64,000 nt of DNA from Candidatus Yanofskybacteria bacterium RIFCSPHIGHO2_01_FULL_43_32 (GTDB lineage Bacteria > Patescibacteriota > Minisyncoccia > 2-02-FULL-40-12 > GWA2-44-9): positions 236,514 through 300,513 of the forward strand of contig MGJF01000002.1 in NCBI GenBank assembly GCA_001794125.1. Reading direction: 5' to 3'. A program made the position numbers and the translations under genes. The first letter of the stretch is position 1. Every line of letters starts with the position of its first letter. A model generated the notes under the pieces. That model made no database searches, was not told where the DNA came from, and was given only the letters and a program-made list of their open reading frames with translations. This document shows positions 10,875-63,362 of the stretch, piece by piece.

Positions 10875-11985
10875 CGCCCTAATCACAATCAACCTCGTGG
10901 TTCTGAACGGCGAAAAGTATGTCCGCCATTGTTTGAATTCCGTAAAAGATCAAACTCACCCTCATAATCGGATTGAACTTAATATTCTTGATAATGGTTC
11001 GGTTGATTCTACAAAAACCATAATCAAGGAAATGGCCGGCGAATTTTCCGATTTTTTAAAATTCAATCTGATTGAAAACGATAAAAATCTGGGTATGTGG
11101 CCGGGGCAGGAAAAACTTTTAGAACATTCCGCCGGAGAATATGTGATAATTTTGTCGGTTGACGTCATTCTTGATAAGGATTTTGTTTCAAATGCGGTTA
11201 AGGCAATAAGTAAAGATGAAAAAATAGGCGCCATTCAAGCCAAGGTCTATAAATATGATTTGTCTGATTTAGAAAATGAAAATTATAAAATTAAAACCGG
11301 AGGAACGATTGATACCTGCGGATTTCAGATATTCAAATCCCGAAGAATAATAAACATAGGCCACGGAGAAAAAGATAACGGCCCCTCCTTCACTAAAGTT
11401 TCGGCGGGCAAGCAATTCGATTTTAACAAAGAACAGGAGATATTCGCGGTAGAGGGGGCGGTTCCGGTTTTCCGTAAAAATGCTCTGGAAAATTGCCGGA
11501 TTATGGGTCAAAGCGAGGGTTCACGCGAAGCGGGAATCGTCTCCGAAATAGCCGACCACGACATGTTCTGGTACGCGGAAGATTTGGATGTTGCGTGGAG
11601 AATGAGGCTGTTCGGATGGAAGCAGTTGTTTGTTCCCGATGTAATTGCCTGGCACGACCGCCAGACCACCAAGAATTTGAGCAGAACTTTCTCTGATTTT
11701 CTTAAAATTAGAAGGCGATTATCCTTGCAAAAAAGGCGTTTAGAATGGCGAAATATTCGCTTTACAATTATCAAAAATGATTATACAATAAATATCTTAA
11801 AAGACCTGCCGCATATACTCAAGCGGGAGATAATGATGCTTGGTTATATAATCATTTTTGAGCCCAAAATACTTGCCGAAGTGCCTACGTTTTTTCGGCT
11901 TCTTCCAAGAATATTAAAGAAACGGGGGCAAATTATGAAACGCAGGGTGGCCGGTCCGGAAGAAATGAGAAGATGGTTTATTTAA
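10867..11985 (+). CDS. Glycosyltransferase family 2
   Basis: ITINLVVLNGEKYVRHCLNSVKDQTH ... ELNILDNGSVD. Confidence 0.7.
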   Translation: MNDALITINLVVLNGEKYVRHCLNSVKDQTHPHNRIELNILDNGSVDSTKTIIKEMAGEFSDFLKFNLIENDKNLGMWPGQEKLLEHSAGEYVIILSVDVILDKDFVSNAVKAISKDEKIGAIQAKVYKYDLSDLENENYKIKTGGTIDTCGFQIFKSRRIINIGHGEKDNGPSFTKVSAGKQFDFNKEQEIFAVEGAVPVFRKNALENCRIMGQSEGSREAGIVSEIADHDMFWYAEDLDVAWRMRLFGWKQLFVPDVIAWHDRQTTKNLSRTFSDFLKIRRRLSLQKRRLEWRNIRFTIIKNDYTINILKDLPHILKREIMMLGYIIIFEPKILAEVPTFFRLLPRILKKRGQIMKRRVAGPEEMRRWFI

Positions 11986-14113: not shown

Positions 14114-15355
14114 ATGACAAAAACAAAACAAATATTAATTATAAACATAATTGTTTCCCTCGCTTTAGGCTTTACGGGCGGTTTCTTGTTTAAAGATTTT
14201 GGCAGCGGAAATTCCGTGGCGGCGATTAAGCAACTGATAAACCTCGACAACGGCAAACCGGAAGATGTTGATTTTTCTCTTTTTTGGAAGGTATATAACG
14301 ACCTTGGCGCCAAATATGTTGATAAAGGGAAAGTAGACCCTCAAAAAATTCTTTACGGGGCCATAAACGGGCTGGTCAACAGCGTCGGCGACCCCTATAC
14401 TGTTTTTTTTGAGCCGGTCACAAGCAAGAAATTCCAGGAAGAAATATCCGGAAGTTTTGGCGGCGTCGGAATTGAAATAGGAAAGAGAAACAACATCCTT
14501 ACCGTCATAGCTCCCCTTAAAGATACGCCTGCTTTCAAGGCGGGAATTAAAGCGGGAGATAAGATATTAAAAATAGACGCCAAACCAACCGCAAATTTGA
14601 CAATTGAAGAAGCTGTAAACTTGATAAGGGGCAAAAGGGGGACAAAAGTTGTCTTGACCATACAAAACAGCGCCACCAAAGACATTGAACTCATCAGAGA
14701 CGCCATAAAAATACCGACCATTGACTGGGAACTGATTGACAGTCCGCCAGCCGGCGGAGGCAAAAAGATCGCTTATATGCAAATATATTCCTTTAATCAA
14801 ACAGTGGATTCGGAATTCAAAAAAGCATCGGAAGAAATACTGAAATCCAATGCCGATAGATTAATAATCGACCTGCGAAACAACCCCGGAGGATTGTTGG
14901 ATTCGGCCATAAATTTGGCCGGCTGGTTTTTAGACAAAAACCAAATTGTGGTCAGCGAGGTATTCAGAGACGGAACGAGAAATGAATTCCGGAGCGATGG
15001 CGATGCTTTATTGAAAAAATACCCCACGGTTATCTTGATGAACGGCGGTTCCGCTTCGGCATCGGAAATCTTAGCCGGCGCCTTGCATGATAACCGGGGA
15101 ATTAAAATAATAGGGGAGAAAAGCTTCGGGAAAGGCTCGGTTCAAGAACTGGAGAAATATACTGACGGTTCTTCCTTGAAAGTAACCATCGCAAAATGGC
15201 TTACTCCGGCCGGAATTTCAATCTCTGACAAAGGCATAGAAGCCGACGTTGAGATTAAGTTCAAAGAAGAAGACCTCAAAGAAGAAGGCAAAATAGAAAT
15301 CGGTACTCCGGGCAAAGACCCTCAGTTAGATAAAGCGATCGAGATTGTAAGATAG
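14114..15355 (+). CDS. ctpA: Carboxyl-terminal processing protease (S41, PDZ domain); carries in-frame PPAGGG palindromic insert
   Basis: PDZ GGVGIEIG...GIKAGDKILKIDAKP and S41 NGGSASASEILAGAL. Confidence 0.85.
   Translation: MTKTKQILIINIIVSLALGFTGGFLFKDFGSGNSVAAIKQLINLDNGKPEDVDFSLFWKVYNDLGAKYVDKGKVDPQKILYGAINGLVNSVGDPYTVFFEPVTSKKFQEEISGSFGGVGIEIGKRNNILTVIAPLKDTPAFKAGIKAGDKILKIDAKPTANLTIEEAVNLIRGKRGTKVVLTIQNSATKDIELIRDAIKIPTIDWELIDSPPAGGGKKIAYMQIYSFNQTVDSEFKKASEEILKSNADRLIIDLRNNPGGLLDSAINLAGWFLDKNQIVVSEVFRDGTRNEFRSDGDALLKKYPTVILMNGGSASASEILAGALHDNRGIKIIGEKSFGKGSVQELEKYTDGSSLKVTIAKWLTPAGISISDKGIEADVEIKFKEEDLKEEGKIEIGTPGKDPQLDKAIEIVR
14743..14758. repeat. 16-bp palindrome TCCGCCAGCCGGCGGA, copy 1 (in ctpA, encodes PPAGG)
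   Basis: exact string. Confidence 0.8.
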
Positions 15356-15843: not shown

Positions 15844-16290
15844 ATGAAAGTTATATTACTACAAAACATAAAAGGGTTCGGGCAGATAGGGGATGTGAAG
15901 AACGTGTCGGACGGCTATGCTAAAAATTTTTTATTGCCGAGAAAAATGGCCAAGGCGGCTACCGGCGGCTCTATGAAAGAAGTTGAGTCGTTGAAGGCAA
16001 AACGGATTATCATGATCGAGGCTGAAAGAAAAAACGCCCTTGAAGCCGTTGAAAAATTAAAAGATATTGTTATAGAATTCGCCCGCAAAGCAACCAAGAC
16101 GGGCAAACTATTCGCCGGAATCGGCAAGGACGACTTGGTTAAAGAAATTAAAAAGGCCTCCGGAGTCCAGCTTCAGGAAGAAATGATAGGCCACGAAGAA
16201 CCCATCAAACACATCGGCGAGCATCTCGTGGACCTGAATCTGTCTCCAGAGGTTAAAACTCAAGTCAAGGTGTTAGTAAAGGCAGAATAA
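15844..16290 (+). CDS. rplI: 50S ribosomal protein L9
   Basis: MKVILLQNIKGFGQIGDVKNVSDGYAKNFLLPRKMA. Confidence 0.85.
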   Translation: MKVILLQNIKGFGQIGDVKNVSDGYAKNFLLPRKMAKAATGGSMKEVESLKAKRIIMIEAERKNALEAVEKLKDIVIEFARKATKTGKLFAGIGKDDLVKEIKKASGVQLQEEMIGHEEPIKHIGEHLVDLNLSPEVKTQVKVLVKAE

Positions 16291-16329
16291 CCAGCTCCGC
16301 TCCCGCCAATCCCCATCCTTATCCTTATC

Positions 16330-16740
16330 GCTCCGCCACTCCCCATTCTCGACCTGTTGCCTGCGCCTTCGGTCTCCTTCGGACAAATGCTTAAATTTAT
16401 CTCAATTCAGCTATGAATTTTGTTATCCATTCCTGCTTCGCGACCAAAATTCATTCTTAGTTGAATTTTCAACAAATTTAATCATTATGTTACCCTCGGA
16501 GGCAAACGGTCTAAAATGGGGATAGGGCTTTCGCTATTAAACACAGAGCCCCCAGTCGCCAATCTCTCTGATAGCACTCCACGCAGCAATGGGGTAAACA
16601 AAATAGGGGTCAAATGAGTAAATATGCGAATTAGCAGAGCGCTCTCGCATATTTATGAAATGAGACCCCATTTTGTTCGCATTGCGGAGTTGTGATAGAG
16701 GAGAGATTGCGATGGAGGGGCGGTAGAGAGGCGGAGTGAG
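16330..16740 (+). repeat. ~410-bp structured non-coding element, family 2 copy A (conserved blocks CGACCTGTTGCCTGCGCC..GGTCTCCTTCGGACAAAT, GTTACCCTCGGAGGCAAAYGGTCTRAAATGGGG, GCGGAGWTGTGAT..GATTG)
   Basis: second copy 37027-37440 in same orientation; no ORF; internal hairpins differ in sequence but keep position. Confidence 0.6.
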
Positions 16741-16744
16741 TTAT

Positions 16745-17023
16745 TTAGTTGGCAACCACGTTGACGATTTTCACAAGTCGCTTAGAACCGTCGTATTTAG
16801 TTTTCTTTTTGGTAGTGAATTTGACTTTGCCGTTTATAACTGCGTAAATAGTATCGTCTGAACCGATGCGGACGCCATCGCCGGGAATGAATTTAGTTCC
16901 TCTTTGCCGGATTATAATATTGCCCGGTTTGGCCACTTCGCCTGCATAAAGTTTCACGCCCAAATATTTTGGTTGCGAATCTCGTCCAAGTTGTGTAGAC
17001 CCTATAGCCTTTGTATGCGCCAT
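16745..17023 (-). CDS. rpmA: 50S ribosomal protein L27
   Basis: [45 protein letters not shown]. Confidence 0.9.
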
Positions 17024-17529: not shown

Positions 17530-19320
17530 ATGCAAATCAGAAATATCGCAATAATTGCCCACGTAGACCATGGGAAAACGACTCTGACCGATGCCCTGAT
17601 GAAACAGACGGGGATGGTGGAGGAAGGATTCAGCATGGATGTTAATGCGCTCGAACAGGAGCGCGGTATTACGATTTATGCAAAAAACGCCTCTCTTTAT
17701 TATAAAGACACCAAAATAAACATCGTTGACACCCCCGGCCATGCCGATTTCGGCTCGGAGGTAGAGCGTGTTTTACGTTCAATTGATTCCGTTCTTTTAA
17801 TTGTAGACGCACAGGAAGGGCCGATGCCCCAGACCAAGTTCGTATTAAAGAAGTCTCTTGAACTGGGTTTAAAACCAATCTTGGTTATAAATAAAATAGA
17901 CAAACCCGCCGCAAAGCCGGACGAAACCCACGAAAAGGTATTTGAATTATTTATGGACTTGGGAGCAACCAACGAACAGCTGGATTTTAAAACTATTTAT
18001 GCAATAGGAAAAACAGGTACGGCAAAATTAAACCTCACTGATGAGTCCAAAGATCTCACCCCTCTTCTCGATTTGATTTTAAGAGAAGTGCCGGCCGCGC
18101 CGTCTGACGCTTCCGCTCCGTTGAGATTTCAGCCTTTCAACTTGGCCTATGATAATTTTTTAGGACGCCTCGGAATAGGCAGAGTTTGGTATGGAACAAT
18201 GAAGGTGGGGGATAATGTTTTTATAAAGAAGCCGACAGGGGAAACCCGCTCGGGCAAGATAACCCAGCTTTTTACCTTCCGCGGAATGAAAAGAGAAGAA
18301 GCGAAGGAGGCTGTCGCAGGCGACATAGTTATGGTTGCCGGATTGCCGGATATTTATATCGGAGAAACGGTCTCGACTTCTCCCGACGTGGAACCATTAT
18401 CAGCTATCAATGTGGACGAACCGACCATATCTTTGAATTTTTTAATCAACGACTCTCCGTTTGCCGGCCAGGACGGTAAATTCGTAACCAACAGACAGTT
18501 GAAAGAGCGTTTGGAAAGAGAACTTGAGGTTAATATCGGATTAAAAGTTGATTTTTCATCTACGGAGTCCTACAAGGTCTACGGGAGAGGAGAACTGCAC
18601 ATCGCCATTCTTTTGGAAAATATGAGGCGTGAGGGCTATGAGCTTCAGGTTTCTCAGCCCCAAGTTATTATCAAAGAAATAGACGGCCAAAAAATGGAAC
18701 CTTTTGAAGAGGCCGTGGTTGATGTTCCTGAAAATCTCTCCGGAACCGTAATACAAAAACTCGGCAAGAGGGCCGGAAAAATGATGGGCATGATACAGCA
18801 TCATGGCGAGGTTAGGATTACTTTTGAGATTCCGACCCGAGGTCTTTTGGGCTATAGAAATGAATTTATGGTAGACACGAAAGGTGAAGGGATACTCGCA
18901 AGCCACTTTATCGGTTTCCGGCCGTATGCGGGAGAAATAAAAAAGAGAAGCGTCGGTTCCATGGTTTCAATGGAGACGGGCAAAGCTCTGGGTTTTTCGT
19001 TATACAATCTCCAGGACAGGGGTACGCTTTATATCGGGCCGACCACTGAAGTTTACGAAGGTATGGTCATCGGAGACGTTTCAAAGGGAATGGATATGGC
19101 GGTAAATCCGATTAAAGGAAAAAAACTTACCAACATGAGAGCCTCGGGTTCAGATGAAAATATTATTCTCACACCTCCGCATCCGGTTACCCTTGAAGGC
19201 GGATTAGAAATCATGCAGGAAGACGAATATCTTGAAGTCACTCCCAAAAACATCCGCCTCCGAAAACAATTCCGCACCGAAAACGACCGAATTAAAGCAG
19301 CTCGTTCTGCTTCGCAATAA
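17530..19320 (+). CDS. typA: Translational GTPase TypA/BipA
   Basis: MQIRNIAIIAHVDHGKTTLTDALM G1 motif, DTPGHADF, NKIDK. Confidence 0.9.
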   Translation: MQIRNIAIIAHVDHGKTTLTDALMKQTGMVEEGFSMDVNALEQERGITIYAKNASLYYKDTKINIVDTPGHADFGSEVERVLRSIDSVLLIVDAQEGPMPQTKFVLKKSLELGLKPILVINKIDKPAAKPDETHEKVFELFMDLGATNEQLDFKTIYAIGKTGTAKLNLTDESKDLTPLLDLILREVPAAPSDASAPLRFQPFNLAYDNFLGRLGIGRVWYGTMKVGDNVFIKKPTGETRSGKITQLFTFRGMKREEAKEAVAGDIVMVAGLPDIYIGETVSTSPDVEPLSAINVDEPTISLNFLINDSPFAGQDGKFVTNRQLKERLERELEVNIGLKVDFSSTESYKVYGRGELHIAILLENMRREGYELQVSQPQVIIKEIDGQKMEPFEEAVVDVPENLSGTVIQKLGKRAGKMMGMIQHHGEVRITFEIPTRGLLGYRNEFMVDTKGEGILASHFIGFRPYAGEIKKRSVGSMVSMETGKALGFSLYNLQDRGTLYIGPTTEVYEGMVIGDVSKGMDMAVNPIKGKKLTNMRASGSDENIILTPPHPVTLEGGLEIMQEDEYLEVTPKNIRLRKQFRTENDRIKAARSASQ

Positions 19321-19348
19321 AACTCGCTCCGCCTCATCTGAACAGTTG

Positions 19349-19468
19349 ACACAACCTCCATGCATGACTGCGGGGTGCACTTTTTAAAAATTTACTAATT
19401 TTAAAAAAGCACACCCCCTCCGCCGGTTGTTTAGAGTATAGCTGATAATTAACAATAAAGAGTCAAAC
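19349..19468 (-). repeat. Structured repeat family 3, copy L (promoter-like TTGACT-N19-TATACT, AACAACCGGCGGAGGG, stem, CATGCATGGAGGTTGTGT); inverted relative to copy R
   Basis: aligned by eye to 21181-21301 and 50381-50559. Confidence 0.6.
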
Positions 19469-19515
19469 CATCTCTGGTGAGCCGTTGATTGTTGGTATGA
19501 AAGTTATGCCTTGCA

Positions 19516-20538
19516 ATGGGTGGCAAAGATAGTAAAATTAAACCAATGACAAATCATAAGATTGTAATTGGCGACTCAAGGAAAATGGCAGAGATTGCCG
19601 ATGAATCTGTCCAGCTTGTTATTACTTCGCCTCCATATTGGCAACTCAAGGATTATGGATCAAAAAATCAAATTGGTTTTGACGATTCTTACGAGGACTA
19701 CATAAATAATTTAAACTTGGTTTGGAATGAGTCATATCGTGTCTTAAGTCCGGGTTGCAGACTTTGTATAAACATAGGAGACCAATTTGCTCGCTCCGTT
19801 TATTATGGAAGGTATAAAGTCATTCCAATTCGAACGGAGATAATTAAGTTTTGCGAAACCATCGGTCTTGATTATATGGGCGCCATAATTTGGCAGAAAG
19901 TTACAACGACAAACACAACAGGTGGCGCAAGCATTATGGGCAGTTTTCCATATCCAAGAAATGGTATTTTGAAATTAGATTATGAATTTATTTTGATTTT
20001 TAAAAAACCAGGAGCACTACCTCAACCACCCGAAAACATTAAAGAGAAATCAAGATTAACAATAGACGAGTGGAATAAATATTTTGCAGGACATTGGAAT
20101 TTTAACGGTGCCAGACAAGAGCAACATTTAGCCATGTTTCCGGAAGAGTTGCCAAAAAGACTTATAAAAATGTTTAGCTTTGTGGGGGAGACGGTACTCG
20201 ACCCTTTTTTAGGAAGTGGTACAACTACTTTGGCGGCAAAGAATTTAGAACGAAATTCTGTCGGATACGAAATTAATAACAATTTTCTGCCACTTATTAA
20301 GGAAAAAATAGGGGTAAATCAAAAAAACTTGTTTTCTAATGCCAAATTAGAATTTGTTAAGCAAAACAAATTCAACCAGGATTTTAAAATAGCCGTTGCC
20401 GACCTATCTTACGTTTTTAAAGACCCGATAAAAATTACGAGGAATATTAATACTAAAAAAATGAAGTTTGGTTCGAAAATTGATTCATCTGACTTTAATT
20501 ATAAACCCTTAAAGTTAAAAGAAGCATTCTTTAAATGA
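19516..20538 (+). CDS. Type II DNA methyltransferase, beta-class amino-MTase (N6-adenine or N4-cytosine)
   Basis: motif IV VITSPPYW precedes motif I DPFLGSGTT. Confidence 0.8.
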   Translation: MGGKDSKIKPMTNHKIVIGDSRKMAEIADESVQLVITSPPYWQLKDYGSKNQIGFDDSYEDYINNLNLVWNESYRVLSPGCRLCINIGDQFARSVYYGRYKVIPIRTEIIKFCETIGLDYMGAIIWQKVTTTNTTGGASIMGSFPYPRNGILKLDYEFILIFKKPGALPQPPENIKEKSRLTIDEWNKYFAGHWNFNGARQEQHLAMFPEELPKRLIKMFSFVGETVLDPFLGSGTTTLAAKNLERNSVGYEINNNFLPLIKEKIGVNQKNLFSNAKLEFVKQNKFNQDFKIAVADLSYVFKDPIKITRNINTKKMKFGSKIDSSDFNYKPLKLKEAFFK

Positions 20539-21128
20539 AAACTCTCAAAATTGATAATAAAAAGCTCCTTGAACTTCTAAATATTGAGCCGCCTAAATTT
20601 GCAAAATATTCCGGGCCTCTAATGAATTTAGCAAATCGGTTTATTGGCGGCACTAAACCAAAAGTAGTGGGACAAATGAGCGAGTTAATAAAAGAATTTG
20701 ATGGCAAAACTTTTAAAGAGTGGGAAAGTTGGTATTTGAAAAAACATCCTAAAGCTATTGATGCGGCAGTAGAGAAGATTACCCAAATGCTCATTAATTT
20801 TAAAGATGTTTTAGAAAAAACCGACGAGGCATCTATAAAAAGGTGGGTGCGTGACCTTGTAATTATTAAGACATTTGTCGGCTTGAAAAATCAAGAGGCA
20901 ATTTTAAAATCAGTTGCCGAATATTTTAAAACTGAATATAGATCGGCCAAACCAGCAGAGGAGTCAAAAGGAATTGACGGTTTCATCGGAGAAAAATCTG
21001 TAAGCATTAAACCGCATACATACTTACTCAAACCTGAACTATTGGAAAAGATTGAAGCTCCCATTATTTACTACGAAAAGACAAAGACCGGACTCAAAAT
21101 ATATTTCCCAGAAAACTTAACAAAATAA
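20535..21128 (+). CDS. Putative cognate type II restriction endonuclease (assignment by context only)
   Basis: start codon overlaps MTase stop (ATGA); 197 aa, no recognisable family motif. Confidence 0.4.
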   Translation: MKTLKIDNKKLLELLNIEPPKFAKYSGPLMNLANRFIGGTKPKVVGQMSELIKEFDGKTFKEWESWYLKKHPKAIDAAVEKITQMLINFKDVLEKTDEASIKRWVRDLVIIKTFVGLKNQEAILKSVAEYFKTEYRSAKPAEESKGIDGFIGEKSVSIKPHTYLLKPELLEKIEAPIIYYEKTKTGLKIYFPENLTK

Positions 21129-21180
21129 TTAACCCAGCATTATTATTCCCCTAAGCAAGGCTTCTGGGAACATTAAAGAA

Positions 21181-21301
21181 GTTTGACTTTCTATTGCCAA
21201 TCGTCACTCATTAACCAAAACAACCGGCGGAGGGAGCATGCTTTTATAAAATCAGCAGTATTTTAGAAAAGTATGCTCCGCAGCATGCATGGAGGTTGTG
21301 T
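21181..21301 (+). repeat. Structured repeat family 3, copy R
   Basis: GTTTGACTttctattgccaatc...AACAACCGGCGGAGGGAGCATGC...GTATGCTCCGCAGCATGCATGGAGGTTGTGT. Confidence 0.6.
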
Positions 21302-21304
21302 GAG

Positions 21305-22048
21305 TTATCTTATTTTCTTCAACCAATACTCATTCTCCCAAGCCCATAAATCTTTGCAGGCTAAGAAGGCCTTGATATCGGAGTCAAAGGTGTTTAGTTC
21401 TTTTATTTCTACTTCGCCTTTCATTGGACCCCATTCGTGTTCACATTTTCCTTTTTCGCCACGGATTTTTTCCCGTCCGCCTTTGTCGCGCATGGTTGCC
21501 GGGCATCTTAAGCAATGTTTTGACTGGTCAAGACGCAATATCCAGCGGGTAAGGGGAGGGAGGGTTTTGTCCTCGCTTAAAGCTTCTATGTAAGCCGAGG
21601 TCTGCATGCTGTAGTCGCGGTATATCGCCATTGAGGTTTTGATATCCAAGACGCCCAAAACGCCGTTTAATTCGGCCAGAACATCCATAGTTCCGGCAAA
21701 ATGGTGTTTTTTTGACACAACTCTCTCTTCTATCTTGTGGGCGATCACCTCGTTCTTATTATAAAAATCCATAAAAGCGGAGACGGCCGGTTTGACCTGG
21801 TCGGGGATAACGATAGGTTCTTTTCTCAAAATCGCCTCAACCGTTTCGTGAAGCAATGTCCCTTCTTCCGCGGACTTGGATTTAATATCTTCCCCGGTCT
21901 TATAGTCAGGCAATCCGGCATAAAACATATAAAGTGCCGGTTTGGCTTTGATTGAAACAATCGACGTAACCCGCGGATACCAAATTCCGTCTATTGTGTA
22001 GCCGTTGCCTTCTTTAAAACTATCTACTGTTGTGTACCAGTTGCTCAT
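21305..22048 (-). CDS. PD-(D/E)xK nuclease, Cas4/RecB-like with C-terminal Cys cluster
   Basis: DVLAELNGVLGVLDIKTS D..D/E.K core; CLRCP...C...C cysteines. Confidence 0.6.
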   Translation of the reverse strand: MSNWYTTVDSFKEGNGYTIDGIWYPRVTSIVSIKAKPALYMFYAGLPDYKTGEDIKSKSAEEGTLLHETVEAILRKEPIVIPDQVKPAVSAFMDFYNKNEVIAHKIEERVVSKKHHFAGTMDVLAELNGVLGVLDIKTSMAIYRDYSMQTSAYIEALSEDKTLPPLTRWILRLDQSKHCLRCPATMRDKGGREKIRGEKGKCEHEWGPMKGEVEIKELNTFDSDIKAFLACKDLWAWENEYWLKKIR

Positions 22049-33318: not shown

Positions 33319-33390
33319 GACAATAGTATATCATATTTTATTATTTATGTCAAAGTGGTTAATTTTATTTAATTCTACTATAATTTCTGT

Positions 33391-34107
33391 GTGGTTAACC
33401 AGCAAACAATTTTGAGTGTAGAAAACTTGGGAGTAAAATTTGATAATAATGAGATCCTAAGAGGGCTTAATTTTATTGTTCAAAAGGAGGACGTTTTGGC
33501 CATTGTCGGCCCTAATGGAGCCGGTAAATCGGTATTGTTCAGAGCGCTTCTGGGGTTAATTCCCTATTCCGGCAAGATCCAGTGGGCTCCCGGCCTGAAG
33601 ATAAGTTACGTTCCCCAGAAATTCAACATCGACAAAGACCTCCCCTTAAGCGTTGAAGAATTTTTGAAATTTAAAGAAAAAAATCCCAAGAAAATAATCG
33701 GCGCCTTGAAATCGGTTGGCATAACCGATGAACACCACATTGAACATCATGTCTTAAAAGAAAGGGTCGGCTGGCTGTCCGGAGGCCAAATCCAGAGAGT
33801 TTTAATCGCCTGGTCTATTTTGAATAATCCTGACGTTCTTTTGTTTGACGAACCCACTGCCGGAATCGATGTCGGAGGAGAAGAAACAATTTATAATCTT
33901 CTGAAAAAATTAAAAGACGAAAGAGGTTTTACCGTCCTGTTAATTTCCCACGACCTGAACATTGTTTACAAATATGCCAATAATGTCATCTGCGTAAATA
34001 AGGAGATGGTTTGCCACGGCGAACCGAATGTGGTTCTTGATCCGGCTTCTCTTGCCAAGCTTTACGGCGGGGAAACGAGTTTCTATAAACATGAACATTT
34101 TCACTAA
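33391..34107 (+). CDS. Metal (Zn/Mn-type) ABC transporter ATP-binding protein
   Basis: Walker A GPNGAGKS, signature LSGGQIQR, Walker B LLFDE. Confidence 0.8.
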   Translation: MVNQQTILSVENLGVKFDNNEILRGLNFIVQKEDVLAIVGPNGAGKSVLFRALLGLIPYSGKIQWAPGLKISYVPQKFNIDKDLPLSVEEFLKFKEKNPKKIIGALKSVGITDEHHIEHHVLKERVGWLSGGQIQRVLIAWSILNNPDVLLFDEPTAGIDVGGEETIYNLLKKLKDERGFTVLLISHDLNIVYKYANNVICVNKEMVCHGEPNVVLDPASLAKLYGGETSFYKHEHFH

Positions 34108-37026: not shown

Positions 37027-37440
37027 TTCGCCTCTCCCCATTTCCGACCTGTTGCCTGCGCCTCCGGTCTCCTTCGGACAAATCATCAAATTATTCTCAA
37101 TTTGCTTAATAAATTTCAGTAACCGTTCTTTCTTCATAAGATTCAGGAATTTCCGACTAAAATTTATTGGGATTAAGCAAATTATCAAATAATTTGATGA
37201 TCGTGTTACCCTCGGAGGCAAATGGTCTGAAATGGGGGGAAGCCTGCACTTTAAGTTGACAAGTAAAATCCCAGCCATATCCCTGTCTGAATCACTCCTC
37301 GCAGCGATACGGTAACATAAAGAAGCTGACAGATAGGAAATTGAAGCTATAGTCGAAGCGATCGCTTCAATTTCCGTACATCCGTCAGCTCTTTTGTCGT
37401 ATCGCGGAGATGTGATGAAGAGAGGGATTGGCAGGGAATA
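37027..37440 (+). repeat. ~410-bp structured non-coding element, family 2 copy B
   Basis: shares three conserved blocks with 16330-16740; internal long inverted repeat ATCATCAAATTATT..ATTTGCTTAAT/ATTAAGCAAAT..AAATAATTTGATGAT and hairpin GAAATTGAAGC...GCTTCAATTTC. Confidence 0.6.
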
Positions 37441-49380: not shown

Positions 49381-49986
49381 ATGAATACCAAGTTTAAAGA
49401 CATCGTAAAATTATTTCAGAAACTCCCCGGCGTAGGACCGAGACAGGCAGCCAGATTTGTCATTGCTCTAATGGACAAACCGGAAGAAGAACTTCGTGAA
49501 TTCGGCAAAGCCGTAGCGAATTTGCGCAAGGAAATATCTTTTTGTCCTGTCTGCTTTAATATATCCGATAACGGTCTTTGTTCGGTGTGTTTAGACGGCA
49601 AAAGAGACCAGGCGAAACTATTGGTGGTAGAGAAAGTTACAGACTTGGATTCCATTGAACGGACAGGACTTTATAAAGGCCTTTACCACGTTCTTGGCGG
49701 AGCGATAAATCCTCTGGACGGCCTTACTCCCGAAACGCTTCGTTTAAAAGAACTTGCAGAACGCATAGGCAAGCTGGGAGACAAAAACATAGAACTTATC
49801 ATCGCCACTAATCCCAACACCGCCGGCGAAACAACTTCCCACTATATCCGAGAGGTTTTCGGCTCCGCCAGCTGGCGGAAAAAAGGGGTCTACCTGACCC
49901 GCCTCGCCCGAGGCCTTTCCTCCGGCTCAAATTTAGAATACACGGACGAGATAACACTGAAGAATGCGTTGGATTATAGGAAATAG
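49381..49986 (+). CDS. recR: Recombination protein RecR
   Basis: HhH LPGVGPRQAARF, C4 zinc finger CPVC...CSVC, Toprim. Confidence 0.9.
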   Translation: MNTKFKDIVKLFQKLPGVGPRQAARFVIALMDKPEEELREFGKAVANLRKEISFCPVCFNISDNGLCSVCLDGKRDQAKLLVVEKVTDLDSIERTGLYKGLYHVLGGAINPLDGLTPETLRLKELAERIGKLGDKNIELIIATNPNTAGETTSHYIREVFGSASWRKKGVYLTRLARGLSSGSNLEYTDEITLKNALDYRK

Positions 49987-50380
49987 TCGCTCGGCCTCAT
50001 TGTATTTTTCAGCCCGTTTCGATTGCTCCTGCGGCAATCTCCACTTGTCCTCACGACGGCGGGTCCAGCCTGCCGTGTCACTAAGTTTATTGCATAGTAA
50101 AGCTTATCTGACGGAAAGCCTAAATCTTGAGTAGCTTATCTCACGAACTCCGGCGTGGACACCAAGCCCGCCTGTTCGGACGGGCTTCAAAATGCAATAA
50201 GACCTCACTTTTTTTAATTTTAAACAAAAAAAAATACACTGAGGAGATTCTGAACCTCATTAGTGCAGGGAATCGACAGATCGATTCCGCTCTTCTGGTA
50301 TGAAAACCAGAATAGTTGTAGCATAACAAATCTGGTTGTCTCTGTCAATAGTATAACCCAGCCACATTTCTTTTTTGTCG

Positions 50381-50559
50381 CTTTGAACCTCTATTGCCAA
50401 TCACCACCTATTCACCAAGGCAACTGGCGGAGGGAGACGCCTTTATCCCAAAGAAGAACGTTCGCAGACGGGTAGCCGAGATAGAGCAAAAACCCGGCAG
50501 GGTTTTATGCGGTCTTCGTGGGATGAGGGCGTCTCCTTCCGTACGCGTAGAGGTTGTGT
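50381..50559 (+). repeat. Structured repeat family 3, solo copy 3 (longer central stem GGAGGGAGACGCC...GGCGTCTCCTTCC)
   Basis: CTTTGAACctctattgccaatc...CAACTGGCGGAGGGAG...GTAGAGGTTGTGT; followed by terminator 50571-50603. Confidence 0.55.
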
Positions 50560-50570
50560 AAACTATTCAG

Positions 50571-50603
50571 AAAAAATCACCGCTTTAGGCGGTGATTTTT
50601 GTG
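50571..50603. terminator. Hairpin AAAAAATCACCGC ttta GGCGGTGATTTTT overlapping the last codons of rplU (bidirectional terminator)
   Basis: perfect stem with flanking A/T runs. Confidence 0.6.
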
Positions 50604-52910: not shown

Positions 52911-54218
52911 TTTAGAAAGCCACTTTTTACCCTGTCTGACCAGCAGGTCTTTTTTATTTCCTCCGCCGGCTGGCGGATCCGCCATTATTTCTTCCACTAT
53001 TTTTTCCATCCTCATTCCCTGCGAACCTTTTATCAAAATTAAATCCCCTTCTTTGATTAACTCTTTAACTTTCAATTTCGCTTCATCCGACGTATCAAAT
53101 CTATAAATATTTTCTCTGGGCATCTGATTGAAGGCCGAGTCAGCAATAAATTTCGCCCTTGAACCCACACAAACAAGCAAATCAACAAAACTTCCGGCCA
53201 CATTTCCCGCTTCTTTATGGGCATCTATCGTATATTTTCCCAACTCAAGCATATCTCCCAAAACAGCGACCCTCCGCGTTCCGGGTAAGTCCCGGAGTGT
53301 TTCCAACGCTAAATGTGTAGATAAAGGAGATGCATTATATGTGTCGTCTATGATTGTAGAGTTTTTGATTCCTTTCAGTATTTTCAATCTGCCTTTCGGT
53401 CCGTGATATTCAGAAATGGCCTCGCTTATATCAACCAAATTCATGTCGAAAATTGAACCGATCGCGGCCGCCGCGGCGGCGGCATATCCTTGGGATTTAC
53501 CCAAAGAACCGCTCAATTTAAATGGCACAAAACTATCATTATAATTTATTTTAAAACTCACTCCTTCTGGTCTCTCGTTAGAAATTAGAGATTGGAAATT
53601 AGAAATTTTAATATTTGCTCCCTCGCCAAACCCGAATGTAAGCACTTTTGCTTTTGTCCTTTCTTTCATTTCAAAAACAGCTAAATCGTCAAAGTTCAAA
53701 ACCGCGAAATCAGAGACCGAAAGCGCCTCGATAAGCCGGCCCTTCTCTTTGGCCACACCTTCAGGTCCGGAGAAATATTCTACATGAACCGGCACTTCCC
53801 CGACCGCGGTTACCACTCCGATATGAGGTTTGAACTTGGCGGCTAATCGCTTTATGTCGCCCGGCTTATCCGCTCCGTATTCTAACACTAAAATCTCCGG
53901 ATAATTTTTTTGAAAAAACAGGCCACAAAAAGAAACCGCCAAAACTCTGATCCAAAAAAACAAAGTATTCTCCGCTTCATAATATTCATCGGCCCAATTG
54001 CCCACGATGGTCAGCGGCACGCCGAATTCGTTGTTAAGATTGCCCTTTCCGGATCTGACTCTTTTTGACCTCGCCAACACAGCCGAAATCGCTTCTTTGG
54101 TTGATGTCTTGCCGACATTTCCGGTAATAGCGATAATTTGCGGTTTATAGCGCCTTAAATACATTTTGGCGATTATGTCGAGTTTCCAGACGATTATTTT
54201 TTTAATAAAGTTTTTCAT
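52908..54218 (-). CDS. murF: UDP-N-acetylmuramoyl-tripeptide--D-alanyl-D-alanine ligase; C-terminal PPAGGG palindromic extension
   Basis: IAITGNVGKTSTKE P-loop and NLNNEFGVPLT MurF hallmark. Confidence 0.8.
   Translation of the reverse strand: MKNFIKKIIVWKLDIIAKMYLRRYKPQIIAITGNVGKTSTKEAISAVLARSKRVRSGKGNLNNEFGVPLTIVGNWADEYYEAENTLFFWIRVLAVSFCGLFFQKNYPEILVLEYGADKPGDIKRLAAKFKPHIGVVTAVGEVPVHVEYFSGPEGVAKEKGRLIEALSVSDFAVLNFDDLAVFEMKERTKAKVLTFGFGEGANIKISNFQSLISNERPEGVSFKINYNDSFVPFKLSGSLGKSQGYAAAAAAAIGSIFDMNLVDISEAISEYHGPKGRLKILKGIKNSTIIDDTYNASPLSTHLALETLRDLPGTRRVAVLGDMLELGKYTIDAHKEAGNVAGSFVDLLVCVGSRAKFIADSAFNQMPRENIYRFDTSDEAKLKVKELIKEGDLILIKGSQGMRMEKIVEEIMADPPAGGGNKKDLLVRQGKKWLSK
52962..52977. repeat. 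16-bp palindrome copy 2 (in murF, encodes PPAGG; adjacent second palindrome TGGCGGATCCGCCA)
   Basis: exact string (reverse complement). Confidence 0.8.
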
Positions 54219-56537: not shown

Positions 56538-56553
56538 TCCGCCAGCCGGCGGA
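56538..56553. repeat. 16-bp palindrome copy 3 (9 nt after rsmH stop, would read NPPAGGE in rsmH frame)
   Basis: exact string. Confidence 0.8.
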
Positions 56554-62837: not shown

Positions 62838-63362
62838 TTAAGCTCCGACCTGTTTCTTTTTAACTATTTCGCTTAAAACCATTGCTAATCCGGAAACCGG
62901 ATATTTCATCATTCCGAACAATCTTGCCAGCAATATTTCTCTGGACGGCATCTTGGCCATTTCTAAAAATTTTTCTTTGTCCATGAAATGGCTTTCAAAA
63001 ATAGCTCCGAAAAACTGGAGGGCCTTATTTTTCTTGGCAAATTCGTAAAGTTTCTTGGAAATCGCATAAACATCCCCGCTTCCTAAAACTAATCCGACAG
63101 AACCTTCCATGTTGTAGACATCAACGCCCTCTCCGCCAGCTGGCGGATTTGATTCTTTCAAAACCAAATCCATCAAGGTTTTTTTGGTTACAAAGTATTC
63201 GGCATCCATGGTTCTCAATGCCTTTTTTAATTCCGACATCTGGGCCACAGACAAGCCTTTCTCGCCCGCTCTTGAGAAGGTGGTAAATACCGTTATTTTG
63301 GACTTCGGAAGTTTGGTTTTTAGCTTCTTTAGTTCCGTTGATTTTTGGGTTTTGCTTTTCAT
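62838..63362 (-). CDS. rplJ: 50S ribosomal protein L10; contains in-frame NPPAGGE palindromic insert
   Basis: position upstream of rplL and L10 N-terminal fold. Confidence 0.85.
   Translation of the reverse strand: MKSKTQKSTELKKLKTKLPKSKITVFTTFSRAGEKGLSVAQMSELKKALRTMDAEYFVTKKTLMDLVLKESNPPAGGEGVDVYNMEGSVGLVLGSGDVYAISKKLYEFAKKNKALQFFGAIFESHFMDKEKFLEMAKMPSREILLARLFGMMKYPVSGLAMVLSEIVKKKQVGA
63132..63147. repeat. 16-bp perfect palindrome TCCGCCAGCTGGCGGA copy 4 (in rplJ, encodes PPAGG)
   Basis: exact string. Confidence 0.8.

Follow-up and report, generated by a model that had tools for sequence, protein, structure and literature searches.

A 64,000-nt stretch of a Candidatus Yanofskybacteria genome (candidate phyla radiation, CPR) from Rifle groundwater, hereafter the window, carries three copies (A, B and C) of a structured repeat, two of which bracket a restriction-modification (R-M) cassette next to typA. 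All three are members of a family of structured intergenic repeats that is specific to one lineage, Candidatus Yanofskybacteria with close Parcubacteria; its core unit measures about 130-190 bp, and intact members run to about 200 bp. On balance, and with moderate confidence, we favour reading these repeats as a family that resembles miniature inverted-repeat transposable elements (MITEs), that probably acts at the RNA level and that marks recombination-prone slots for gene cassettes. An intact member consists of terminal inverted repeats of about 20 bp, a 45-bp 5' module, a core that folds on one strand and a short tail; A and B, which differ in hairpin subtype, are both old and degenerate. 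Between them the R-M genes form a cassette of low GC content that moves separately and horizontally and is not cargo of the repeats.

Layout and anatomy of the three copies

In a multiple alignment of the window sequence A, B and C are mutually homologous and have four blocks in common: the 5' module TTTGA(C/A)..TATTG..AAT, CAAC(C/T)GGCGGAGGG, a central hairpin and a 3' block ending in GAGGTTGTGT. The order is the same in all three, the conserved 5' module being followed by CAACYGGCGGAGGG, a compensated long hairpin and GAGGTTGTGT. BLAST aligns A with B at 77% identity across 122 nt, and a repeat search returns them as inverted arms 1.8 kb apart (I1, 52 nt at 81%; I2, 18 nt at 100%). Exact matches to CAACYGGCGGAGGG number three in the 64 kb, and six are found with up to two mismatches against 0.53 expected, while the 5'-module motif TTTGAMYYTYTATTGYYAAT matches only at the A, B and C sites. 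An earlier reading, made from the sequence only, had placed inverted copies at 19349-19468 (minus) and 21181-21301 (plus) with their 5' ends toward the cassette and their 3' ends outward, and this geometry holds. Its positions were right and its 3' ends too short: the element runs about 13 nt past GTTGTGT (tail TGARCTATTCAGA), and copy A further, to a GGCGGAGCG box. The same tail and GGCGGAGCG box lie beside the stop codons of convergent genes in four other loci (L029, L035, L039 and L040; loci fetched from related genomes and metagenome contigs carry L numbers here).

Structure prediction gives each of the cores the same plan, with z scores of -4.3 to -6.7: a short helix, P1 (ACAACC/GGUUGU), closes the core, an internal loop that is asymmetric comes next, and then a long hairpin, in which insertions into the apical loop are tolerated. 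Copy C, with a stem much longer than those of A and B, folds at -71.7 kcal/mol (z = -6.7) and scores 37.6 bits with R1, a covariance model that we built from 24 copies; its subtype also occurs in L032 and, more diverged, at copy A's position in L044, where it was recognised by eye and went undetected by R1. The sequence-only reading had located this third copy at 50381-50559 with a longer stem and a terminator, all of which stands, and had taken it to be alone, which it is not: a member of a second repeat family is its head-to-head partner. The features of the three copies are as follows.

19336-19468, minus: copy A, R-M-flanking repeat of about 130 bp
19325..19348, minus: copy A 3' tail (TCAACTGTTCAGATGA then GGCGGAGCG), ending 4 nt from the typA stop codon
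19349..19432, minus: copy A core (P1, asymmetric internal loop, type-1 long hairpin); -33.2 kcal/mol, z = -4.9; R1 113.5 bits
19433..19468, minus: copy A conserved 5' module (TTTGACTCTTTATTGTTAAT...), promoter-like but non-canonical, uncalled by a sigma-70 scan
21181-21314, plus: copy B, R-M-flanking repeat of about 130 bp
21181..21217, plus: copy B conserved 5' module, from alignment and motif match
21218..21301, plus: copy B core, type-2 hairpin (AGCAUGC.../...GUAUGCU); -29.6 kcal/mol, z = -4.3; R1 101.1 bits
21302..21314, plus: copy B tail; overlaps the convergent 247-aa gene at its stop codon (21305-21307)
50381-50572, plus: copy C, 5' module, 142-nt core with long type-3 hairpin, and tail
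50575..50600, unstranded: hairpin and T-run terminator, common to copy C and the convergent rplU (L21; Pfam) that it faces
49987..50205 (approximate), minus: second-repeat-family member, head-to-head with copy C; its outer end GGCCGAGCGA abuts the stop codon of recR (identified by Pfam)

A large family with a covarying hairpin

Scanned for the exact pattern, species-representative genomes yielded 27 copies in Patescibacteria, with at least 10 in each of two small, fragmented genomes, and five chance matches in GC-rich genomes. R1 found 143 copies at E < 1e-8 in 746 kb of related genome and metagenome contigs, only three of them in the window. The hairpins fall into type 1 (including copy A), type 2 (including copy B), the long type 3 (including copy C) and type 4, with further variants that have small structured modules nested in the apical loop or a 3' extension. 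That extension (GTCATACGACCACTGCTCCGCTRCGCGGGTTG), seen in L011, L021, L105 and L110 and also in L044 near 11840-11880, contains a second complement of the 5' GCGGAG/CAACC motif and could form an alternative closing helix. The family is apparently undescribed: at the gathering threshold Rfam matched only two tRNAs in the whole window and none of the repeats, permissive Rfam searches around A, B and C gave chance-level matches only, and full-text literature searches, partly aimed at CPR MITEs and Yanofskybacteria repeats, returned no description of it.

The hairpin of the family is under structural selection, probably as RNA. Across 130 distinct copies 96.8% of the cells of the hairpin helix are paired, and in eight of its 13 pairs both partners have changed, single columns showing as many as four pair types; the observation that the arms differ between A and B and yet stay complementary extends to copy C and to this whole alignment. 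The covariation score of the whole structure was equalled in none of 500 shuffles, and sliding the partners against each other lowers whole-structure pairing to 40-58%. The sense strand gives the better fold in 90 of 99 unique hairpins (mean gain 4.1 kcal/mol), and in one orthologous pair of copies the core is 97% identical against 83% in the adjacent coding sequence. A small third helix, GCA/UGC, was considered and dropped as unsupported, with no pair changed on both sides.

The R-M cassette is independent of the repeats

Between A and B lies a type II R-M cassette of ordinary make, which matches known mobile cassettes of this type, with no difference that we could see, in its methyltransferase overlapping an MjaI-family endonuclease, its low GC content and its varied loci across genomes. 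The MjaI family recognises CTAG.

19489..21129, plus: R-M cassette, made up of an N4/N6 DNA methyltransferase (19516-20538; PF01555) and an MjaI-family endonuclease (20535-21128; PF09568)

Its GC content is 31-38% against 42-46% in the flanks, and the 5' ends of both repeats face it. Endonucleases 90% identical to this one are found at two other Parcubacteria loci, between rpoC and ftsK (L164) and between rmuC and a H+-PPase gene (L168), where the R-M DNA as a whole is 87-89% identical over about 1.6 kb. These matches span 19489 or 19527 to 21113 or 21129, inward of both repeats, and an R1 scan of L164 and L168 did not find the repeat. The recurrence of the R-M block at repeat-free loci leads us to reject the first of two interpretations offered before, that of a MITE-like mobile unit carrying the R-M genes. 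Nor were the target-site duplications proposed at 19348/21302 found: on inspection there is no direct repeat outside the unit formed by A, the cassette and B, and the flanking sequences are the elements' own inverted tails.

The typA slot in relatives and strain variants

The place that the cassette occupies is a variable one. TypA is 95% identical to that of metagenome-assembled Candidatus Yanofskybacteria genomes, and the order typA, 245-aa gene, exonuclease gene is kept in relatives, with varying content between typA and the 245-aa gene. The suggestion to look for the same junction in relatives returned a slot with other cargo, in which the repeats are variably present, absent or degraded.

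17635..19320, plus: typA/bipA GTPase gene, left conserved flank of the slot (Pfam GTP_EFTU, EFG_C, BipA_C)
21305..22048, minus: conserved 247-aa gene, right flank of the slot; without Pfam match, orthologues flanking the slot in L043-L048
Slot in the window: copy A, R-M cassette, copy B
Slot in L044: type-3-like element at copy A's position (by eye; R1 negative) and a 97-aa zinc-ribbon open reading frame (ORF)
Slot in L045: two unknown genes and a hairpin-less remnant at copy B's position
Slot in L047: three small ORFs
Slot in L048: second-family element and a small ORF

Strain contigs with an identical methyltransferase diverge from the window at three points, in a pattern that would fit recombination at the repeats. 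In L008 the break is at A's outer edge (19341), the 3' tail of A is exchanged for other sequence and uvrB stands where typA would be; L010 breaks at 21304, the outer edge of B, and continues into a glycosyltransferase gene; L005 breaks at 21170, the inner edge of B, and B is absent. L010 also lacks, at 381/377 (window 19082-19183), 102 bp of the coding sequence of typA, the result either of a deletion in frame or of faulty assembly. The junction of the convergent L9 and L27 genes (window 16290-16745) is another variable slot. It is 455 bp long in the window, where it includes a long unique hairpin at 16530-16745; L043 has 25 bp at this place, L045 has 331 bp, and in L047 there are 1.7 kb that include extra ORFs.

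Pair geometry, cargo and neighbouring genes

The inverted arrangement of A and B recurs in the family. Adjacent copies no more than 1 kb apart are head-to-head, with their 5' modules inward, in 16 cases, in tandem in five and convergent in none; for distances of up to 2 kb the corresponding counts are 21, 5 and 4. The segments between paired copies are mutually unrelated save for the elements' 5' modules and one related pair (L027/L040), and the idea of a common core between pairs was dropped on this ground. Six segments were read fully; in most of these and of the slots of L022, L027 and L039 there is a single small ORF, equipped with a canonical promoter and a terminator of its own. Most cargo ORFs had no Pfam match. 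The slot next to comM has different cargo in L022 and L027; an RNA gene between that pair was considered and rejected, as Rfam was negative there and small ORFs were found instead. Separately, a 283-bp head-to-head interval in L094 (2336-2617) has no ORF and holds a GC-rich structured stretch with a minus-strand TTGACA/TATGAT-type promoter, which may be a small RNA gene. The members of a pair are 71% alike against 76% for random copies and are mostly of different subtypes; because they are less alike than random copies, we reject the idea that pairs are duplicates.

The outer ends of paired copies mostly lie against the stop codon of a convergent gene. Of 118 copies with a called 3' neighbour, 71 face a convergent gene, and in 55 of these 71 the stop codon lies -9 to +25 nt from the element end. 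Other copies lie 17-54 nt upstream of a co-oriented gene. In the window, stop codons are abutted by copy A (typA), copy B (the 247-aa gene) and the second-family element (recR).

MITE-like traits and a proposed history

Clear terminal inverted repeats, 16-24 bp long and of two or three variants, are seen in L119, L059, L106, L076, L040, L021 and L094; the left one reads GCCCAGCACTTTATTTCAGA or GCTGATATTTTATTTCAGA and the right one is its complement followed by GGAGCG. Filled and empty orthologous sites are seen for L120 against window ~33353-33419 and for L080 against L050, and truncated and hairpin-less remnants occur. Small, non-coding, dispersed in many copies and polymorphic for presence and absence, the repeats share these traits with MITEs, and we conclude from the terminal inverted repeats of intact members together with the presence/absence polymorphism that the family is also MITE-like. 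The second repeat family, with 10 further copies in the fetched loci including the one in the typA slot of L048, has termini similar to these terminal inverted repeats.

The history that we favour is one in which the family would have spread as a non-autonomous MITE-like element; selection, most likely for an RNA, would then have preserved the core as the majority of terminal repeats decayed. Copies would tend to settle at gene ends, about half of them with the 3' tail on the stop codon of a convergent gene, and close copies would come to lie nearly always head-to-head around short variable cargo. The junction of typA and the 247-aa gene would be one such slot, in which the R-M cassette may have landed between A and B. 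The conserved repeats could then serve as portable homology or as breakpoints for the gain, loss and swapping of cargo, and their hairpins as RNA-level terminators, stabilisers or transcripts for the flanking genes.

Several observations weigh against this account. Terminal inverted repeats score well in only about 8% of 119 copies, and A, B and C have none intact. AAGCG.. is frequent in the left flank and ..GGAGCG in the right, and AGCGAAG stands on both sides at one locus, but there is no consistent duplication, and the filled/empty pairs are too diverged to show one. The breakpoints of the strain variants come from short metagenome contigs and could be assembly chimeras, and the avoidance of like subtypes within pairs may be a sampling bias, the loci having been seeded with a type-1/type-2 pattern. 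Arm mismatches counted by cell are 85 G.U and 6 A.C, but by distinct site they are 10 and 5, so that the strand bias is in part a matter of descent, not of independent change, and shared ancestry may explain much of it. P1, finally, is highly conserved and folds as had been predicted from ACAACC and GGUUGU, yet it shows no clear covariation: with a metagenome search pattern that leaves P1 free, we counted about 19 C-to-U changes on its 5' strand, about 20 G-to-A changes on its 3' strand, which create C.A, and about 2 compensated changes, a pattern that looks neutral. With so few compensated changes P1 is unproven, and its covariation was abandoned as a line of evidence. To these points is added that the repeat has no canonical promoter.

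The 5' module and the question of a promoter

The 5' module is found in every copy and is usually preceded by the terminator hairpin of the upstream gene, which in some copies is a palindrome, TCAACGGCTCAC..GTGAGCCGTTGA, to which we return below. Within the module the hexamer TTGAAC is conserved and is followed 19-20 nt later by TAnnnn, of which the final T is not conserved. The sequence-only reading had described a sigma70-like box with a spacer of 18 or 19 nt; our count is 19-20 nt against a canonical 16-18, the -10 is weak, and a sigma-70 scan called none of the 5'-module sites of the window copies. The same genomes have TTGACA-N16-18-TATAAT promoters at the cargo genes and, by inspection, at the L019 rRNA locus. 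Because of the non-canonical spacing and the weak -10 we regard the description of the repeat as promoter-bearing as unverified. Readings of the module as a sigma-54 promoter (TGGCAC-N5-TTGC) or as one of the extracytoplasmic function type (GAAC-N16-CGT) were rejected, their spacing being a misfit by inspection.

Some side observations concern promoters near repeats. At window ~33353-33419 and in L120 the start codon of an ABC-ATPase gene follows its TATAAT box so closely, after about 6-8 nt, that leaderless mRNAs are suggested for this lineage, and in L120 the 3' end of the repeat (TTGTGT) lies about 17-18 nt upstream of the ABC-ATPase -10 box, that is, in the place of a -35. In L019 a 16S rRNA match at 301-828 covers model positions 9-546 only, within an 8-kb locus, and may represent a CPR rRNA gene that an insertion interrupts; a co-oriented copy of the repeat is found 236 nt upstream of it, and between the two there is, by inspection, a canonical promoter.

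Alternative readings

Foremost among the alternatives, unlikely in our judgement though with a real chance of being right, is that the repeats are a non-mobile, multicopy family of small-RNA genes with an unusual promoter of their own, paralogous genes that happen to adjoin variable regions. Hairpin covariation and sense-strand bias suit this reading, as do the fixed distance of the conserved 5' module from the core, the upstream terminator just before the module, as expected of a separate transcription unit, the terminator of copy C and the orthologous pair whose core outconserves the neighbouring coding sequence. It is at odds with the long spacer, the -10 without a conserved final T and the silent promoter scan, with the absence of a terminator from most copies and with a P1 that does not covary. 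The terminal inverted repeats, filled and empty sites, nested insertions and remnants point instead to a mobile, decaying repeat. Against it, too, are the load of at least 10 copies in each of two small, fragmented genomes and the existence of at least two other repeat families, one of them with similar termini. The second interpretation proposed earlier, a small structured-RNA family with its own promoters whose copies flank the island, thus survives in part: the family is large, with a covarying hairpin and a sense-strand fold bias, while the promoter and P1 covariation fall away and MITE-like traits come in.

A bolder version of the slot reading, which we offer as speculation and consider improbable, would make head-to-head pairs of unlike copies at convergent-gene junctions dedicated "cassette slots", in which small accessory genes, R-M systems included, are captured, swapped and lost. 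A recombinase acting on the repeats or on an adjacent dif-like palindrome, or transformation followed by homologous recombination on the repeats, would drive an integron-like exchange across the chromosome of reduced CPR genomes, with the RNA hairpins insulating the neighbours.

The palindrome in question bears on a related and, as we see it, quite improbable explanation, in which the repeat pairs or the adjacent TCAACGGCTCAC..GTGAGCCGTTGA palindromes are sites of a tyrosine recombinase, in the manner of pdif modules or dispersed integron cassettes.

19472..19488, unstranded: half palindrome TCAACGGCTCAC-N-GTGAGCCGTTGA, between copy A and the R-M block; 19-nt exact match to a full palindrome upstream of the L164 R-M cassette

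In its general form, the perfect palindrome AATCAACGGCTCAC-N2-6-GTGAGCCGTTGATT, it occurs 21 times in 1.13 Mb, in the window at 336-357 (full) and 19472-19488 (half) and also in L015, L027, L040, L045, L164 and others, and all eight occurrences near a repeat are on the element's 5' (inner) side. It resembles, by its sequence, a bidirectional terminator or a dif-like site. Arms of about 11 bp around a centre of 4-6 bp, the constant inner position and the occurrence upstream of R-M genes in an unrelated genome would agree with site-specific exchange, and so would the strict head-to-head geometry around non-homologous single-gene cargo and the different cargo that the comM and typA slots carry in relatives. 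No recombinase is linked to the pairs or the palindromes, however, the palindrome looks like an ordinary bidirectional terminator between A and T runs, and the comparisons made reveal no fixed nucleotide at which cargo sharply begins or ends. By inspection there are no integron attC core sites (RYYYAAC/GTTRRRY); the attC reading was rejected since the ends ..GCAAC and GTTGTGT do not fit such cores and close pairs are inverted rather than direct, although intI was not searched for.

We think it very improbable that the repeats are single-strand DNA hairpin elements of the REP or IS200/IS605 kind, moved by an HUH transposase, whose strand bias would reflect the folding of a DNA strand. The strand-specific tolerance of G.T-type mismatches, the copies beside hairpin terminators and the lack of a clear target-site duplication would be in keeping with this, but known elements of the kind use short, sequence-conserved subterminal hairpins and have no terminal inverted repeats, whereas the hairpins here are at least 20 bp long, variable and tolerant of insertions, and intact copies have terminal inverted repeats. 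Hardly credible, lastly, is a composite MITE-flanked transposon with A and B as the terminal inverted repeats of one R-M-carrying unit: the inverted geometry with the same end outward on both sides, the recurrence of head-to-head pairs around cargo and the retention of A, the R-M genes and B in L008 and L010 with a flank altered exactly at the element edge would favour it, but the R-M block recurs without repeats with its homology ending at 19489 and 21129, A and B are too dissimilar and of different subtypes, pair members at large are less alike than random copies, direct repeats were not seen by inspection outside the unit, only one flank is altered in L008 and L010, and in relatives the repeats at these positions go with different cargo or with no cargo.

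Comparison with known repeat families

The Correia elements of Neisseria (CREE/NEMIS) are multicopy, non-coding intergenic repeats of about 100-155 bp with terminal inverted repeats and a long RNA hairpin; they lie at gene ends and beside 'minimal mobile element' regions, with possible outward promoter elements and terminator activity, and are defined by a TA target duplication and an integration host factor (IHF) site. By description they are like the family treated here in size, multicopy intergenic placement, hairpin and siting at gene ends and, for a minority of our copies, in terminal inverted repeats. There is no sequence relation, and neither the TA duplication nor the IHF site was found in our family; a Correia element is, moreover, essentially one long inverted repeat, whereas our family has, on the flanks of the hairpin, a 45-bp 5' module that is not palindromic and an asymmetric loop. 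Nor, to our knowledge, have Correia elements been described as pairing strictly head-to-head around cargo of a single gene.

The dispersed repeats bcr1 (Bacillus cereus group), ERIC, BOX and RUP, of 100-200 bp, have a conserved predicted RNA structure with compensatory changes, are MITE-like and are transcribed within neighbouring mRNAs. They are alike in size, structure and MITE-like traits, but differ in phylum and sequence, and we know of no reports for them of head-to-head cassette pairing or of such regular abutment on convergent stop codons. In the pdif modules of Acinetobacter plasmids, accessory genes, among them defence and resistance genes, are bracketed by inverted short recombination sites, the 28-bp XerC/XerD sites, and the modules vary between similar backbones. 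The inverted bracketing of accessory genes is similar; our repeats are structured, of 130-190 bp and chromosomal, and the nearby palindrome of 26-28 bp is only a lead.

Further repeats in the window

The motif GGCGGAG was considered as a genome-wide signal and rejected, most occurrences being Gly-Gly codons. A 16-bp palindrome, TCCGCC-NNNN-GGCGGA, occurs five times in the window against 0.11 expected (14743-14758, 49864-49879, 52962-52977, 56538-56553 and 63132-63147); at least four of the five are within ORFs, three of these encoding PPAGG(G/E). In S41-peptidase orthologues (L014, L047) its nucleotide sequence is preserved, and it has 12 of 14 bases in common with CAACYGGCGGAGGG. A third dispersed structured repeat family is represented at window 16325-16525 and 37029-37237 (72% identical), with at least 15 further matches in related loci; it has a CCCCAUUU...AAAUGGGG closing helix and an AT-rich central hairpin.

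Implications

For the R-M system the outcome is deflationary: an ordinary mobile cassette landed in a slot. The genomes of CPR/Patescibacteria are tiny, and the turnover of their accessory and defence genes and their non-coding RNAs are little known. The repeat family can serve as a marker of variable slots in such genomes and as a candidate RNA element whose hairpin covaries well, and it gives a testable model of how cassettes may turn over at convergent-gene junctions.

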